Made by a program: the position numbers and the translations under genes
Part shown: piece after piece, positions 2,784-42,286 of the stretch
How the letters are laid out: each line of letters opens with the position of its first letter
How positions within the stretch are numbered: the stretch's first letter is position 1
From: Escherichia coli
GTDB taxonomy: Bacteria; Pseudomonadota; Gammaproteobacteria; Enterobacterales; Enterobacteriaceae
Strand: one strand, 5' to 3'
DNA: 64,000 nt
NCBI RefSeq assembly: GCF_001677475.2
Contig: NZ_CP015229.1
Notes under the pieces: generated by a model
The model's input: only the letters and a program-made list of their open reading frames with translations
What the model was told of the DNA's origin: nothing
The model's database searches: none

Positions 2784-3536
2784 TCAGCCCAGCCCCAGCC
2801 CGCGAATGCTGGTGGTGAGCGTACCGATGGTCAGCGACCAGCCGTCGATCAGCACAAACAGCATCAACTTAAAGGGCAGCGAAACAATCAGCGGCGACAG
2901 CATCATCATCCCCATCGCCATCAGTACGCTGGCGACAATCAGGTCGATAACCAGAAACGGGATGTAAATCATAAAGCCAATCTGGAAAGCGGTTTTCAGC
3001 TCGCTCAACACATAGGCGGGCACCACGATCGAGAGATCCTGATCGGCAGCATTGCCCTTCGCGCCGCCGATGGTCATGATTTGCGCCATCGCTTTTTTGT
3101 CAGTCTGCGCCAGCATAAAGCGTTTCAGCGGCGTAGCGGCGGTGCTCAACGCATCGGTCAGGGTAATCCGATCGTTTTCGAACGGCACCACAGCGTGGTC
3201 GTAAATATTGAGCCAGATGGGGCGCATCACCAGCATGGTGAGGGAGAGCGCAATGCCAATCAGAATGCGGTTCGGCGGCGTTTGTTGCAGCCCCAGCGCC
3301 TGGCGCAGCAGCGACAGCACGATAATAAAGCGCGTAAAGCAGGTCATCATCAGCACCATCGTCGGCAACAAACCGACGAGAGTCATCAGAATCAACACCT
3401 GAATTTTGACGCTGTATTCCTGAGTGTTGCCGTGGGTCACCACGTTAAGCAGCGCAATATCTCCGCCCTGGGCGAATGCCAGCGGGGCGAGCGCCAGCAG
3501 CCCAAGGCCCAGCGTCAGTTGAGTGCGGCGTTTCAT
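2784..3536 (-). CDS. lfiP: Flagellar export apparatus FliP homolog
   Basis: 250 aa with signal peptide and FliP-like TM core. Confidence 0.85.
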   Translation of the reverse strand: MKRRTQLTLGLGLLALAPLAFAQGGDIALLNVVTHGNTQEYSVKIQVLILMTLVGLLPTMVLMMTCFTRFIIVLSLLRQALGLQQTPPNRILIGIALSLTMLVMRPIWLNIYDHAVVPFENDRITLTDALSTAATPLKRFMLAQTDKKAMAQIMTIGGAKGNAADQDLSIVVPAYVLSELKTAFQIGFMIYIPFLVIDLIVASVLMAMGMMMLSPLIVSLPFKLMLFVLIDGWSLTIGTLTTSIRGLGLG

Positions 3537-3904
3537 GGTGCCAGGTCGTTGATATCGCGGGTGTTAAATTCCAGCACGCGCAGGCCGTACTTCTCGTTGA
3601 CCACCACCACTTCCGCTTTGCCCAGCAGGATATTGTTCACTTTAATATCCAGCGGCTCTCCGGCAAGTTTATCCAGCTCAATCACCGTGTCGTCGTCGAT
3701 GTTAAGCAGGTCGGCTAACATGATTTCCACCGACGACACTTCCAGCGTTAAGGTCACCGGAATGCGTTTCAGCAGCGTCATCGAGTCGGAAAAGCGGTCT
3801 TCCAGGCGGGTGACCAGCGTTTCGGCGTCGGCGGATTTCGTGACAGGCGCAACTTCATCGGCGAGGCCAAAATCCCCGGCTAAAATATCGTCTTGTTTAC
3901 TCAT
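3533..3904 (-). CDS. lfiN: Flagellar motor switch protein FliN homolog
   Basis: C-terminal SpoA/FliN domain (DIKVNNILLGKAEVVVVNEKYGLRV); start set to ATG 3902-3904 just after lfiM stop. Confidence 0.8.
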   Translation of the reverse strand: MSKQDDILAGDFGLADEVAPVTKSADAETLVTRLEDRFSDSMTLLKRIPVTLTLEVSSVEIMLADLLNIDDDTVIELDKLAGEPLDIKVNNILLGKAEVVVVNEKYGLRVLEFNTRDINDLAP

Positions 3905-4748
3905 GGCTATTCTCATTTTTGCCCGCCAGCTCCGACAAAAACAGTTTGTCTTTGTCTTCCACAATCAGGGCGCTAAATAATTCAGATTGCCCAATCGCCA
4001 CCGGGAACGTGTCTCCCAGCGAAATGGGTAAAATATCCCCGGCTTTTATCTGCGCCAGATCGGCGACATTCATCGATAGCTCGGCGATTTTGACGTTCAG
4101 GGTCAACGGCAGGGAGCGGATGATTTCTTTAATCAGGGCCGGTTTATTAACCGATTTCGCCACCTGCTGCGGTTTACTGTGCTCGCTGTGGCGGATCAGA
4201 TTTAAAATAAAATCGGTGTGGGCGTCGTCGAGCAAAATACGAAAGCTGCTCTCTTCATCACCCGCGAGGGTAAAGGTTAATTGATACGCCCAGTGGGTAA
4301 TCACTGTGCTGCTGTCCAGCTTTAACTTCAGCGCAATACCGGAGGTTTGCAGATTAAATATCAGCGTGCAGATATCCAGCGCCAGTCGGTTCTTTAATCG
4401 TGTTTCGGTTTTGGTCGGCAGCCCGTTATGCGCTTTCGCCTCTTCAAGAGATGACTCCAGACCATAAAAATTGCCCAGCAGCATTAACAGCAAGGAGCGA
4501 TCAATATCAAACGCCAGATGCCCGACCTGGGAAACCATCAGTTCGGCGTTTTTATTAATAATATCCATTTCGCAGCCAATCTTTTTTAGGGTGATATTGC
4601 TGCGATGCTTTTTGAGAAAGTAGCTGCCAAGATGCGAATCAATCACGTCAAAATTCCCCGTAAACAGGGTCGGCAGGCGATGGTAGGGGCGTCCGAGCCG
4701 ATTACCTTCTAATTTAAAGATGCCTGGCGTTTTACTGTACTTCAGCAT
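3897..4748 (-). CDS. lfiM: Flagellar motor switch protein FliM homolog
   Basis: FliM-like sequence with C-terminal SpoA-like region; alternative upstream start at 4793. Confidence 0.75.
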   Translation of the reverse strand: MLKYSKTPGIFKLEGNRLGRPYHRLPTLFTGNFDVIDSHLGSYFLKKHRSNITLKKIGCEMDIINKNAELMVSQVGHLAFDIDRSLLLMLLGNFYGLESSLEEAKAHNGLPTKTETRLKNRLALDICTLIFNLQTSGIALKLKLDSSTVITHWAYQLTFTLAGDEESSFRILLDDAHTDFILNLIRHSEHSKPQQVAKSVNKPALIKEIIRSLPLTLNVKIAELSMNVADLAQIKAGDILPISLGDTFPVAIGQSELFSALIVEDKDKLFLSELAGKNENSHE

Positions 4749-4925
4749 GGCGTACTTTCTCTGCTGTAATGGTATGGGCGTTTTTGTGCACACAAATCCG
4801 GCAGTGACACAAGGTGAACTATTAAATAGAGGGGGCGTGAAAGGGGCAAATTATTAATAGGGTGAAAAAATAATTAAATTATTAAAGGGTGAGGTATCAG
4901 GCATCGTCATAAAACATTGCACGAA

Positions 4926-26764: not shown

Positions 26765-27742
26765 ATGCAGGTCGGACTTACATCTTCATCACTCGCCACC
26801 GGCGGGGCGCATAGCGCTGCGGTATCGTCGTCAACCGTTGCGCCCACTCAGGCGGTGCGGCAAAAGCTCCCGGCGACGGCGAGTGAATATCCGGCCTCGC
26901 CGCTGATTACCACTCGCCCGCAGCGTTACAGCGTGCAGCTTAACGATCAGCTCACCACGTTGCAGCAGGCGGATCACTATCTCGGGCAACTGGAGCAGCA
27001 GTTGCTCGATTACCGTCACAGCCAGCGTAAGGGCGGGCAGGCGCAGAGTACGGCGCTGATGCAGATGCTGGACAAACGCACCGCGCTTTCCGGCGGTGCG
27101 GTGGACCGTCAGTTGCAGCCGGTGTTGCAGGGGGAAGCGCGGGTGACCTTTCACTCGCCGGATCTGGCGAGTCTGGTGCACAACCCCACGCCGGGAACGC
27201 GGATGTTCAGTGTCTCTGACGGGCGGCAGACCCAGCTTTCGGCGGTGATGCTGTCTGAGGATGACAGCGCTGGGCAGTACCAGACGCGGCTGACCAACGC
27301 CCTGCGCCGCGTGGGCGTGCAACTGCATCAGCAAGCGGACGGCATCAGCTTCTCCACCACTGAAAAACAGTGGCCCCATATCGAGCGCACCTTAAGCGTG
27401 CGCACCGATGGTGATAAGTCGGCGTTTATGCCGCTAAAAACCTTTGCCGAACCATCACAGGCGGACCGCTTTGCGCAAAGCCTGCAACAGGGTGGGGCGG
27501 GGATTTCCCAGACGTTAGAAGGCATTAATCAGCAGCGCGCGCAGATGGCGGTGCAGCAGGAAAAAGCCCGCCAGTTGATCGACGGCATGTCACGCTTCCC
27601 GCAAACGGAAAACGCGGTGCAGGCATCGGAGAACCTTGGCGGCGTGCTGGATAGCGCCAATCATAACTATCATGTTTTATTGCAGGCGGTGAACGGTCAG
27701 GCGCGAATTTCCAGCCAGACGGTGAGGAATTTATTGGGGTAA
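26765..27742 (+). CDS. lafW: Lateral flagellar protein LafW-like, function unknown
   Basis: 325 aa, Gln-rich; position after flgL homolog. Confidence 0.5.
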   Translation: MQVGLTSSSLATGGAHSAAVSSSTVAPTQAVRQKLPATASEYPASPLITTRPQRYSVQLNDQLTTLQQADHYLGQLEQQLLDYRHSQRKGGQAQSTALMQMLDKRTALSGGAVDRQLQPVLQGEARVTFHSPDLASLVHNPTPGTRMFSVSDGRQTQLSAVMLSEDDSAGQYQTRLTNALRRVGVQLHQQADGISFSTTEKQWPHIERTLSVRTDGDKSAFMPLKTFAEPSQADRFAQSLQQGGAGISQTLEGINQQRAQMAVQQEKARQLIDGMSRFPQTENAVQASENLGGVLDSANHNYHVLLQAVNGQARISSQTVRNLLG

Positions 27743-27747
27743 TTATC

Positions 27748-27788
27748 GGTTGGCCGGATAAGACGCCTTTAGCGTCGCATCCGGCATA
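27748..27788. repeat. REP palindromic unit
   Basis: ggccggataagacgcctttagcgtcgcatccggca. Confidence 0.75.
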
Positions 27789-27800
27789 TATTGGCACTTG

Positions 27801-28643
27801 TCAGCATTTCTGCACAGTATTTAACAACTTCTCTAAATTCTGATACATCGCGCTATTAATATCGCTGTTCTGCCACTCATCCACATTAAAGGTTAATTGC
27901 CAGCTGCCGTTGCACTGGTTACGCAGAACAATATCGCTTTCCAGTCGGTTACGAACATATTTATAATAGGTTGTCATTGTCATATTATGCGCTGACAATA
28001 AATTATCGAGTTTGTCTTTTCCTGGTGCAAGGGTTTGTGAAAGTAACGGTGCGGAGTTATTTTCTTTTCCAGAACTAAGATGAAATATTTTTATTCTTGG
28101 ACTGTTAATTGACTCTTTTACCAGTTGCGGGGCGTCAGGTGTATTTTTCAAGTGTGAATATCCCACGGTCGAGCCAATAAATATAACAGCTGCGGCTAAC
28201 GCTACCCCCATTATTCCTTTATGTTTTTTTCTAACAGGCACAGGCGGTGTTGTCGAAGATATCTCTTCTGGCACAGTTCCCTGTATCTGGTCGGTAATAA
28301 TCATCGCTTCTGCAGGCGATGACTCCGGCAAAGACACATACTCTTTATTGCACAAGTAACCTTTCTTCGGAATTGTTTTAATAATGTTCTGTTGTTTGCC
28401 ATCATCGTCGATAGCAACCCGCAACGCATGGATCGCCGTCGGCAGGCTGTTTCCGCCGACAATGCGGTTCTTCCATACTTCGGCACATAAATAAGATCGC
28501 GATAAAACCACATCGGCATTTTTTGCTAATGTTTCCAGCAAAATAAAATGGTATTCGCCGAGACGACGTGTTTCACCCGTTTCGCAATGTATTAAGGCAT
28601 TAAGCGACGGGTCCATCCGCCAGTTGTTGATAATAATACTCAT
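27801..28643 (-). CDS. lafZ: ToxR/CadC-like membrane-anchored transcriptional regulator (winged-helix DNA-binding domain + single TM)
   Basis: OmpR/PhoB-type wHTH-like N-term, TM segment GVALAAAVIFIGSTVGY; start set to internal ATG (MSIIINNW...). Confidence 0.6.
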   Translation of the reverse strand: MSIIINNWRMDPSLNALIHCETGETRRLGEYHFILLETLAKNADVVLSRSYLCAEVWKNRIVGGNSLPTAIHALRVAIDDDGKQQNIIKTIPKKGYLCNKEYVSLPESSPAEAMIITDQIQGTVPEEISSTTPPVPVRKKHKGIMGVALAAAVIFIGSTVGYSHLKNTPDAPQLVKESINSPRIKIFHLSSGKENNSAPLLSQTLAPGKDKLDNLLSAHNMTMTTYYKYVRNRLESDIVLRNQCNGSWQLTFNVDEWQNSDINSAMYQNLEKLLNTVQKC

Positions 28644-29128
28644 AGTTGAGTTTACCTTAGCAAGGGATAAATGTTTCCTGATAGTGCTTTGCATAAAGCA
28701 CAGTCTTATACGTCCCTGAGAAGATGATTTTTCTGCGTGATAATTAATATTTTATGGTAATAGGATTATTCTTAATCACTATATGGCGTGGAAATGTAAC
28801 GAAATGACAGGATAGGTACAATAGCCAAATGTGTACTATTTGCAACGCAATGTAAATTTTGGCATCAGTACATTGAGAAGAAAACGCGTTAATTGATGGT
28901 AATCTTAACTATATCAAGCGTTTGATAAAGACATATTTTGATACCTGGCCATGTGGCAGATATTGCTAATAATCTTTTTATCTGAATTTAAACTCTGCTT
29001 TCTTTTAGCTAAAAGTGGCATCGGATAATACGTAGCGAATTTTTTTCATAGCGGTTTTAAGTTTGCTCCCGAGGTGTCGTTTTTACAGGGTATCGAAACG
29101 AAAACGATTAATCCCAAGGAGCAGTATC

Positions 29129-30043
29129 ATGTTATCTATTAACACCAATAACGCCTCAATGGCCGCCGTTAATGCAATCAGCAAAAGCAGCTCTTCTCTG
29201 TCTACATCTATGGAACGCCTGGCAACGGGTAACCGGATTAACTCTTCAGCAGATGATGCGGCGGGCAAACAGATTGCTAACCGTTTAACTGCACAGTCCA
29301 GCGGTATGGGCGTGGCGCTGAGCAACATTAACGATGCCACCGCGATGCTGCAAACCGCTGACAGCATGTTCGACGAAATGTCTGACGTGCTGGGGCGTAT
29401 GAAAGACCTGTCAACTCAGGCAGCGAACGGCACCTACAGCGACGACGACCTGCAGGCGATGCAGGACGAATACGACGAACTGGGTCAGCAGATGTCTGAC
29501 ATGCTGCAAAACACCACCTACGGCGGCACCAACCTGTTCGGTGTTTCCGGCACCAGCAACACCGGTACTGACGGCTTGTTCCAGAGCGCGGTAACTTTCC
29601 AGGTGGGCGCGGAATCTTCTGACACCATGACCGTGAATATTTCAAGCCAACTGAATACGCTGGTGACTGACCTTTCTGCGATCAGCAACTCCTTTAGCGC
29701 GGATCAGGCAGACACCACGGGTACTGCGGGCGTTTCTGGCGGTACTGAACTGACCGCGTCTGGCTCGGCTAACCAGATGATCACCAGCATTTCTACCGCG
29801 ATGGATGATGTTTCTCAGATCCAGTCCAAGCTGGGTGCGTCTATCAACCGTCTGAACGATACCGCCAACAACCTGACCAGTATGCAGGACAACACCGAAG
29901 TCGCTATCGGTAACATTATGGATACCGACTACGCGACGGAAGCGTCCAACATGACCAAACAGCAGGTGCTGATGCAGACCGGCATCACCATGCTGAAACA
30001 GTCCAACAGCATGTCCAGCATGGTTTCCAGCCTGCTGCAGTAA
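29129..30043 (+). CDS. lafA: Lateral flagellin LafA
   Basis: Flagellin N-term (NTNNASMAAVNAISKSSSSL) and C-term (LMQTGITMLKQSNSMSSMVSSLLQ); RBS aagga before ATG 29129. Confidence 0.9.
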   Translation: MLSINTNNASMAAVNAISKSSSSLSTSMERLATGNRINSSADDAAGKQIANRLTAQSSGMGVALSNINDATAMLQTADSMFDEMSDVLGRMKDLSTQAANGTYSDDDLQAMQDEYDELGQQMSDMLQNTTYGGTNLFGVSGTSNTGTDGLFQSAVTFQVGAESSDTMTVNISSQLNTLVTDLSAISNSFSADQADTTGTAGVSGGTELTASGSANQMITSISTAMDDVSQIQSKLGASINRLNDTANNLTSMQDNTEVAIGNIMDTDYATEASNMTKQQVLMQTGITMLKQSNSMSSMVSSLLQ

Positions 30044-40828: not shown

Positions 40829-42286
40829 TTACTTCGCCGGAATTTCTTTCAGCAGTTCAGTCAGCAGTGTCCAGTAATGACCTACGCTTTCGATGTGAAC
40901 TTGCTCATCCGGAGAGTGTGGACCGGTGATAGTTGGCCCGATAGACACCATGTCCATTTCCGGATACGGTTTTTTGAACAGACCACATTCCAGGCCCGCG
41001 TGGATAATCTGGATGTTCGGCGTCTTGTTGAACAGGCGCTGATAGGTTTCACGTACCAGATGCATCACCGGAGAATTAGCGTCCGGCTGCCAGCCAGGAT
41101 ATGCGCCTTTCGCTTCGGTTTTCGCGCCAGCCAATTTACCCAGCGAATCCAGCATGCTCACCACGTAGTCTTTACCGCTGTCGATCAGAGAACGGATCAG
41201 ACAGTGAATTTCTACGTTATTGTCAGTCATGGTCACCACACCGACGTTCAGGGAGGTTTCGACCACACCTTTTGCCACGTCGGAGTTGCGGATCACACCG
41301 TTCGGGGTGGCGTTCAGTAGACGAATAAAGGTATCGCGAGATTTCGCAATCAGGGCAGCTTTATCGTTCGCTACAGAGTCCAGCAACAAGGCCAGATTTT
41401 TCTCTTTCTCTGCCAGCTCGTTTTTCAGGATATCCTGATAGGTATTCACCAGAGATTTCAGGGCGTCGACTTTATCAGCTGCGACAGCAATGGTCGCAAA
41501 GGCTTCACGCGGGATGGCGTTACGCAGTGTGCCGCCGTTGAAATCAATAAGACGCAGGTCCAGTTCTTCTGCATGACCCGCCAGGAAGCGCACCAGCAGT
41601 TTGTTGGCATTACCCAGGCCAACGTGGATTTCACCGCCGGAGTGACCGCCTTTCAGACCTTTTAAGGTTAACTTGAAGGTTTCAAAACCAGCTGGAACCG
41701 CTTCACGATCTAAATGCAGGTTGGAGGTGAAGTCGATACCCCCCGCACAACCCATGTAGATTTCACCTTCTTCTTCGGAGTCGGTGTTAATCAAAATATC
41801 AGCCTGCAACCAGTTGCTCTGTAAGCCGAACGCACCGTCCATACCTGCTTCTTCGGTCATGGTCAGCAGCACTTCCAGCGGGCCGTGAACCACGTTTTCG
41901 TCAGCCAGAACCGCCAGTGCAGAGGCCATACCAATGCCGTTATCCGCACCCAGCGTGGTACCGCGCGCTTTAACCCATTCGCCATCAATATAAGGCTGGA
42001 TAGGATCTTTAGTGAAGTCATGCACGGTGTCGTTATTTTTCTGCGGCACCATATCGAGGTGGGCCTGCAAGACGACCGGTTTACGATTTTCCATACCTGC
42101 GGTAGCAGGTTTACGAATCAGGATATTACCTACCTGATCGCGTTCGACATGGAAACCTTTCTCTTTTGCCCAACCAACAATGTATTCAGCGAGTTGCTCT
42201 TCATGATAGGACGGGTGAGGAATAGAACAGATTTTGGCAAAAATATCCCACAGCGGCTGTGGAGATAATTGAGACAGTTCAGACAC
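40829..42286 (-). CDS. pepD: Cytosol non-specific dipeptidase (aminoacyl-histidine dipeptidase)
   Basis: 485 aa M20 family peptidase. Confidence 0.9.
   Translation of the reverse strand: MSELSQLSPQPLWDIFAKICSIPHPSYHEEQLAEYIVGWAKEKGFHVERDQVGNILIRKPATAGMENRKPVVLQAHLDMVPQKNNDTVHDFTKDPIQPYIDGEWVKARGTTLGADNGIGMASALAVLADENVVHGPLEVLLTMTEEAGMDGAFGLQSNWLQADILINTDSEEEGEIYMGCAGGIDFTSNLHLDREAVPAGFETFKLTLKGLKGGHSGGEIHVGLGNANKLLVRFLAGHAEELDLRLIDFNGGTLRNAIPREAFATIAVAADKVDALKSLVNTYQDILKNELAEKEKNLALLLDSVANDKAALIAKSRDTFIRLLNATPNGVIRNSDVAKGVVETSLNVGVVTMTDNNVEIHCLIRSLIDSGKDYVVSMLDSLGKLAGAKTEAKGAYPGWQPDANSPVMHLVRETYQRLFNKTPNIQIIHAGLECGLFKKPYPEMDMVSIGPTITGPHSPDEQVHIESVGHYWTLLTELLKEIPAK

Follow-up and report, generated by a model that had tools for sequence, protein, structure and literature searches.

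Locus organization and gene prediction

The window, i.e., the whole 64,000-nucleotide stretch of Escherichia coli DNA that was analyzed (contig NZ_CP015229.1), contains a Flag-2 (lateral-type) flagellar locus, of which cluster 3 is described here. The genes are arranged in the order lfgK-lfgL-lafW, followed by lafZ on the opposite strand, and then by lafA, lafB (fliD), lafC (fliS) and onward. The location of lafZ between lafW and lafA in cluster 3 places its product in the Flag-2 LafZ orthologue group, in agreement with the position given for this gene in the literature (PMC6993521). The lafA gene starts at position 29129 on the strand opposite to lafZ, and its product was recognized as the lateral flagellin LafA by NCBIfam (667 bits vs. 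a cut-off of 440). The interval 27801–29128, which the original prediction presented as one membrane-anchored regulator divergent from the flagellin gene, is real, but it consists of the lafZ coding sequence joined with the intergenic region.

The longest open reading frame (ORF) found mechanically for lafZ reaches position 28694 (297 aa). This form is almost certainly over-extended, as comparison with related sequences points to M18 of the 297-aa ORF, at position 28643, as the true start, leaving an 843-nt coding sequence on the minus strand (27801–28643; 280 aa plus stop codon). M18 was chosen because the 843-nt version is the PGAP annotation in E. coli, the equivalent of MSIIxNxW forms the N-terminus of all LafZ homologues, the upstream extension is absent from LafZ of E. 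whittamii, and an AAGG Shine-Dalgarno sequence at 28655–28658 is kept between genera while the upstream ATG is not.

At the nucleotide level, the segment is 97.1% identical to a gene named 'transcriptional regulator' that was detected in 1272 out of 5426 complete E. coli genomes, and at least 80% of the lafZ query was covered in 1256 of the 1272 genomes that carry lafZ. Among complete E. coli genomes, none exceeds this value for the Flag-2 segment 27801–29128, while 99.2% identity is reached for pepD (40829–42286), located 12 kb away; the top protein match of LafZ is found in Escherichia sp. E1V33 (98%). The Flag-2 allele of the window may be recombinant or derived from a divergent lineage. 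The neighboring LafW (26765–27742, 325 aa) is the other Flag-2-specific protein, and a convergent orientation of its gene relative to lafZ is conserved in most loci. LafW matched no family of Pfam or NCBIfam at E ≤ 0.1, and the label 'hook-associated' used for it in the literature gains no support from the domain searches performed here.

Domain architecture of LafZ

Residues 1–100 of LafZ (28344–28643, minus strand) form a predicted cytoplasmic winged-helix DNA-binding domain of the OmpR/ToxR type, recognized by Pfam (Trans_reg_C, PF00486, E-value 1.5e-13, residues 42–114 of the 297-aa form), by sequence matches in the PDB and by structure modelling (pLDDT ~95). Among solved structures, the V. 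cholerae ToxR (E-value 3.8e-8) and E. coli CadC (2.4e-6) DNA-binding domains come closest by sequence, and both outrank all response regulators among the PDB matches. The domain is followed by a juxtamembrane linker (residues 101–142; 28218–28343, minus strand) that ends in RKKHK, is predicted to be disordered (pLDDT < 50 at residues 117–139) and varies in both length and sequence across LafZ homologues. The only hydrophobic segment of the protein (Kyte-Doolittle peak 2.04) coincides with a single transmembrane helix in the AlphaFold model (residues 143–166; 28146–28217, minus strand), and each of the 48 homologues checked has such a segment. As RKKHK precedes this helix, the positive-inside rule suggests an N-in, C-out topology. 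The AlphaFold model of the full protein, built on a 55-sequence alignment, has a pLDDT of 86.7 and comprises the winged helix (1–100), a disordered stretch (117–139), the helix (143–166) and a folded domain (173–274).

An N-terminal OmpR/ToxR-type winged helix without a receiver domain, followed by a single predicted membrane-spanning segment with the N-terminus inside and the C-terminus outside, assigns LafZ to the ToxR-like class of membrane-bound winged-helix regulators. The architecture originally proposed from the sequence (winged helix, one transmembrane helix and a periplasmic domain, as in ToxR/CadC) is correct and stands on firmer ground than could have been known at that stage, the DNA-binding domain being closest to ToxR and CadC among solved structures and the modelled periplasmic domain having the VtrA/ToxR fold. 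Topology prediction, which had been suggested as a check together with modelling of the periplasmic domain, returned one transmembrane helix with a positively charged inside flank. An assignment to the OmpR/PhoB response regulators was rejected, as there is no receiver domain and the matches involve the C-terminal effector domain only, all of them far below the cut-off.

Periplasmic domain and conserved cysteines

The C-terminal part of LafZ (residues 167–280, ~113 aa; 27804–28145, minus strand) is a predicted periplasmic sensor domain with a beta2-alpha-beta3-alpha structure. Modelled alone, it was confidently folded as a single domain (pLDDT 91.9, pTM 0.84) with the element order beta-beta-alpha-beta-beta-beta-alpha. 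According to this model, the domain has the VtrA/ToxR fold, and the match to VtrA is specific. The periplasmic fold of VtrA/ToxR was described as beta2-alpha-beta3-alpha, with retention of a disulfide that involves a cysteine near the C-terminus (Kinch et al. 2022, PMC9214523), and LafZ fits both this fold order and the C-terminal cysteine. Two cysteines, C244 (27912–27914) and C280 (27804–27806, minus strand), occur without exception in 55 sequences whose identity is otherwise 28–40%, C280 being the last residue of the protein; a disulfide between them would stabilize the periplasmic domain.

Sequence searches with the periplasmic domain gave no PDB match using a 50-sequence profile, and the C-terminal half of LafZ has no match in Pfam. 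Neither flagella nor LafZ appear in the text of Kinch et al. 2022 (PMC9214523). Two Yersinia pairs are included in that work (BZ17_3564/3565 and BZ17_3283/3282), and one of them may contain the LafZ orthologue.

The lafZ–lafA spacer and the lafA promoter

As originally predicted, lafZ and lafA diverge from a shared AT-rich spacer of ~430 bp; it measures 434 bp from the longest ORF and 485 bp from the supported start (28644–29128), with a GC content of 0.35. The divergent arrangement was observed in 56 of the 88 loci examined. A two-block motif, TTAAGTTT-N11-GTCGTTTT, lies at 29057–29083 on the plus strand, ~45–72 nt upstream of the lafA start codon, and is unique in the window (0 expected by chance). 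In 44 of the 56 divergent loci, the same motif precedes the lafA start by 72–92 nt, and it is invariant in our alignment A4. The enteric sigma-28 consensus is TAAAGTTT-N11-GCCGATAA, and the motif agrees with it in its spacing and in its −35 half. We therefore read this sigma-28-like element as a putative LafS-type class III promoter of lafA. No further copies were found in the window with strict, PWM or loose patterns, hence a regulon-wide LafS motif is not demonstrable here.

Downstream of the promoter, the 5' leader of lafA (29084–29128, plus strand), which includes an AAGGAG Shine-Dalgarno sequence, hardly differs between Escherichia, Citrobacter and Phytobacter. Its conservation is higher than elsewhere in the spacer and it contains two GGA motifs; no significant RNA structure was predicted for it (z −0.25).

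Further upstream, Escherichia, Citrobacter and Phytobacter have three conserved non-coding blocks in common; such blocks of the spacer are shared between genera with a LafZ identity of only 50%. Two of them, at 28789–28805 and 28836–28860, delimit a candidate lafZ promoter/operator region (28789–28860), and each holds a copy of AATGTAA (28793 and 28849), forming a direct repeat 56 nt apart; a sigma-70-like match on the minus strand (TTTCCA-18-AATAAT) is located at 28794–28765. Escherichia, Pseudocitrobacter and part of Citrobacter share this repeat, which is not conserved in distant genera. The third block, CAGATATTGCTAATAATCTTTTTAT at 28957–28981, is a candidate activator site ~75–100 nt upstream of the lafA −35 element, and a plus-strand sigma-70-like match covers 28946–28973. 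A search for a general operator motif across the 56 spacers highlighted only AT-rich k-mers and the lafA promoter. A sigma-54 promoter (TGGCAG-ATA-TTGC, ~28955) was considered and rejected, as its GG/GC elements are 2 nt too close and TGGCA is not conserved in Citrobacter. Intrinsic terminators were not found in the spacer, its small ORFs were unremarkable, and Rfam gave only sub-threshold matches in 27500–29400, none of them within the spacer.

The claim that envelope or surface sensing feeds directly into flagellin expression is thus supported in part: the regulator class and the divergence from lafA hold, but the direct link is not established. The conserved sigma-28-like promoter that lafA itself has agrees with LafS governing lateral flagellin as a class III product, as is usual, and no LafZ operator could be demonstrated. 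Direct control of the flagellin gene by LafZ is therefore rated here as no more than plausible.

A partner gene and its loss in Escherichia

In distant lafZ loci, an ORF of ~155 aa overlaps the lafZ stop codon. An HMM was built from four of these partner ORFs and searched against all ORFs of the 88 loci, 80 of which are species representatives from a genome scan, all of them Enterobacterales. In 68 of the 80 species loci, the partner immediately follows lafZ; in Citrobacter youngae (L016), for example, lafZ occupies 3501–4451 and the partner 4429–4908. Its ATG lies inside the N-E codons of the C-terminal LNEMxxC motif of LafZ (AATGAAATG), its frame is one base downstream of that of lafZ, the two genes overlap by 20–29 nt, and the N-terminus of the product is a predicted signal peptide or transmembrane anchor, as in exported proteins. 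In most genera, the partner is translationally coupled to lafZ, and this operon layout is also that of co-component systems.

Two partner subfamilies were distinguished. In one of them, associated with the LafZ group nearest to that of E. coli (Citrobacter, Phytobacter), the signal peptide looks cleavable and there are two cysteines, of which one is C-terminal; the other has a longer N-terminal transmembrane anchor and no cysteines. A G-x-YDL...E-x-Y motif is common to all aligned partners (e.g., L016 4429–4905 vs. L086 4396–4857). The partner profile has no Pfam family and no PDB sequence relative, and the protein is called 'hypothetical protein' in every named source.

The partner is absent from six Escherichia/Pseudocitrobacter loci and from one MAG labelled Citrobacter sp. 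(together L009–L015), the LafZ of the latter being 95% identical to that of the window. It is also absent from L057 and from three loci with truncated LafZ, while the locus L073 ends too early to show the partner slot. No partner homologue was found in the window by tblastn (best E-value 0.042, in an unrelated place). Here, the motif LNEM is replaced by LNTV (AAT ACT GTG), there is no ATG, and the alternative frame has only 12 codons. The overlapping downstream partner, by which Kinch et al. recognize co-component pairs, is a feature of 68 of the 80 family loci and not of the window. The comparison indicates that the Escherichia/Pseudocitrobacter lineage, including the window, has lost the partner gene. 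The partner had been overlooked in the original prediction: the regulator is as described there, but its family is normally paired with a co-translated partner that is missing from this genome.

At the place of the missing partner, the window has a 58-bp gap between the convergent genes lafW and lafZ (27743–27800) with a REP-like palindrome (GCCGGATAAGACGC...GCGTCGCATCCGGC); the Rfam match of this gap to naRNA4 is sub-threshold (26.9 bits vs. a gathering score of 59.5). The slot corresponds to the variable region VR2, for which 'cargo' of on average 0.6 kb and one protein was reported in 80.7% of loci (De Maayer et al. 2020, PMC6993521). In Pseudocitrobacter L007 it holds a Gp49/HTH toxin-antitoxin pair, and in E. 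coli Santai a 90-nt HTH pseudogene fragment. The term 'putative toxin/antitoxin system' has been applied to lafWZ, reported as absent from the E. coli ST131 strain EC958 (PMC4637896); contrary to this wording, the toxin-antitoxin pair is VR2 cargo between lafW and lafZ, and not lafW/lafZ themselves. The primer tgtttcctgatagtgctttg, used in the same study to check the lafA deletion, matches the lafZ 5' region of the window.

Cassettes of lafZ and partner were also seen outside the usual context. Without a nearby lafA, they are divergent from a lafS-like sigma factor gene in four genera (L038, L042, L055, L066). In Erwinia aphidicola (L036, 3486–4818) the cassette is situated among ATP-grasp, cupin and aminotransferase genes, and in Cedecea colo (L064, 3384–4896) beside a receiver-less sigma-54 activator resembling LafK.

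Selection and nucleotide composition

The window was compared with other partnerless lineages, ~35% diverged in protein sequence. The dN/dS ratios were 0.00–0.05 for the DNA-binding domain, 0.09–0.21 for the periplasmic domain and 0.3–1.5 for the linker and transmembrane helix. These values indicate that the orphan LafZ is under purifying selection in both domains (dN/dS about 0.1), and that both are thus maintained without a neighboring partner gene.

The GC content is 0.42 in lafZ and 0.35 in the spacer vs. 0.61 in lafW and 0.54 in lafA, i.e., a trough within a locus of 0.54–0.61. In every one of 53 loci, lafZ is poorer in GC than lafW, on average by 11.5 points, and lafZ together with its partner forms a low-GC island relative to lafW in all 53, which suggests that the lafZ cassette is a separately evolving module. 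The compositional trough could reflect an anciently acquired cassette or a target of H-NS-type silencing.

Comparison with known regulators

LafZ has been regarded as a putative 'transmembrane regulator' since Ren et al. 2005, as cited by De Maayer et al. 2020 (PMC6993521), where it is treated as flag-2-specific and serves as a locus marker. Many LafZ records are named 'CadC family transcriptional regulator' at NCBI, and the searchable literature yielded no experiments on LafZ. Since LafZ is named a transmembrane regulator in the literature and a CadC family member by NCBI, the presence of a ToxR-like transmembrane regulator next to lafA is already known at the annotation level. New here are the VtrA-fold assignment, the cysteine pair, the coupled partner and its loss in Escherichia, the selection on the orphan protein, and the position of the lafA promoter. 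LafZ is a typical representative of a class already known, and the twist is that a cryptic flagellar locus carries a co-component sensor orphaned of its partner.

Among the closest known systems is VtrA/VtrC, the bile-acid receptor of V. parahaemolyticus and co-component prototype (PMC9214523): LafZ likewise has a winged helix, one transmembrane helix and a small periplasmic beta2-alpha-beta3-alpha domain, and the lafZ partner, like VtrC, overlaps in another frame (in 68 of 80 species), with a length of ~155 aa and an N-terminal signal or transmembrane segment. However, the LafZ periplasmic domain has no detectable sequence similarity to VtrA, the cysteine pair conserved in LafZ contrasts with a VtrA that lacks a disulfide (PMC9214523), the LafZ of the window is without any partner gene, and its context is flagellar instead of a T3SS.

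In the case of Vibrio ToxR/ToxS, the ToxR DNA-binding domain is the best sequence match of LafZ in the PDB, both proteins have a periplasmic cysteine pair with one cysteine at the extreme C-terminus, and a partner gene lies downstream in most LafZ relatives. Unlike the lafZ partner, toxS does not overlap toxR (PMC9214523); the cysteine spacing also differs, no sequence similarity is found beyond the DNA-binding domain, and the ToxR regulon comprises porins and virulence genes, not flagellin. CadC of E. coli has a periplasmic region of ~320 aa with two subdomains, compared with the single domain of LafZ, and senses pH and lysine via LysP. LafZ scores only 33.6 bits against the CadC equivalog (NF007540; cut-off 400), in the DNA-binding domain only, and thus the two are not orthologues. 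PsaE/PsaF and TcpP/TcpH resemble the LafZ family in having a membrane-bound winged helix, a C-terminal cysteine, a downstream gene overlapping in another frame, and a nearby target; there, the downstream ATG overlaps the cysteine codon, whereas that of the lafZ partner is 5 codons upstream, inside the N-E codons, and no sequence similarity to LafZ was detected. LafK, the sigma-54-dependent activator and lateral master regulator of V. parahaemolyticus, belongs to the same type of locus and regulates lateral flagellar genes, but its family is cytoplasmic AAA+ and unrelated to LafZ, and experimental support exists for LafK and not for LafZ.

Proposed role of LafZ and alternative explanations

On balance we favor, with considerable reservation, a model in which LafZ, encoded in Flag-2 cluster 3, belongs to the ToxR/VtrA superfamily as a bitopic transcription factor of the inner membrane, senses the periplasm and acts on the lafZ–lafA spacer. 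The periplasmic domain would report a periplasmic or envelope condition, jointly with the partner in species that have one (by analogy with VtrA/VtrC and ToxR/ToxS), and the signal would alter the stability or oligomerization of LafZ. LafZ may then bind the AT-rich spacer, with AATGTAA at 28793 and 28849 and the block 28957–28981 as candidate sites, and could in this way modulate its own promoter, support the sigma-28 (LafS)-type promoter of lafA, or both. The LafZ of Escherichia would be a one-component sensor that works alone. Relatives of LafZ often control an adjacent gene, as in CadC-cadBA and PsaE/PsaF-psaA (PMC9214523), and the adjacency of lafZ to lafA is conserved across Enterobacterales. 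Several observations weigh against this model, one being that conservation of the AATGTAA repeat does not extend to distant genera. In the V. parahaemolyticus hierarchy, LafK acts upstream of sigma-28, which drives the class III genes (PMC4481668), and as lafA has its own sigma-28-like promoter at a fixed distance, no extra activator is needed in such a scheme. EC958 showed no detectable LafA under laboratory conditions (PMC4637896), and thus the Flag-2 system may be silent. Finally, VtrA and VtrC form an obligate heterodimer, and ToxR becomes less stable when ToxS is missing (PMC9214523), a dependence on partners from which it follows that an orphan LafZ might be inactive.

Other readings were also considered. 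It is conceivable, although we regard it as rather unlikely, that LafZ acts higher up or elsewhere (on lafK, other Flag-2 operons or non-flagellar genes), with lafA driven only by LafS (sigma-28) and its adjacency to lafZ being inherited synteny. Flag-2 has no flhDC, so some entry point for environmental control is needed, which is compatible with action elsewhere. The conserved lafA promoter, the survival of lafZ–partner cassettes without lafA (L038, L042, L055, L066, L064, L036) and the module-like low-GC cassette in every one of the 53 loci point in the same direction, while the divergent lafA–lafZ pairing is the majority arrangement, conserved blocks are found upstream of the lafA promoter, and membrane-tethered factors commonly act on neighboring promoters, if the analogy with the family holds. 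The loss of the partner raises another question, namely if the orphan Escherichia LafZ is crippled, i.e., unstable or locked off, and in this way helps to keep Flag-2 silent in E. coli. The partner is missing throughout the Escherichia/Pseudocitrobacter clade, the LNEM motif with the partner start codon has become LNTV, relatives form obligate heterodimers or rely on a partner that resembles a chaperone (PMC9214523), and EC958 had no detectable LafA (PMC4637896). Nevertheless, we consider this improbable, as the DNA-binding and periplasmic domains are under strong purifying selection among partnerless lineages, the gene is covered to at least 80% in 1256 of the 1272 E. coli genomes that have it, and the CadC fold works without a lipocalin partner. 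A last reading, in which the ORF encodes no membrane regulator and the hydrophobic segment and C-terminal region are chance features, is hardly credible: the missing Pfam model for the C-terminal half, and nothing beyond it, speaks for this, and it is refuted by the conservation of the transmembrane segment and the two-cysteine domain in every homologue, by the high confidence of the model and by the specific match to VtrA.

A broader and unlikely reading concerns the VR2 slot. Its 'cargo' would in most Enterobacterales be a conserved, translationally coupled co-sensor of LafZ, and Flag-2 would accordingly possess a co-component receptor of the VtrA/VtrC type, lost through a single ancestral deletion in Escherichia that left LafZ as a stand-alone sensor or the system locked off.

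Significance for Flag-2 regulation

About a quarter of complete E. coli genomes carry Flag-2, which no condition is known to induce. LafZ is the only Flag-2 component with a periplasmic sensor domain, and therefore the obvious candidate for the entry point of an environmental signal. Its placement with the VtrA/ToxR co-component systems leads to hypotheses about what it may respond to, such as lipid or bile-like ligands, redox or pH via the putative disulfide, or stability controlled by a partner. If the reading in which LafZ is locked off were true, a Citrobacter partner or a mimic of the signal would awaken the cryptic lateral flagella of E. coli.
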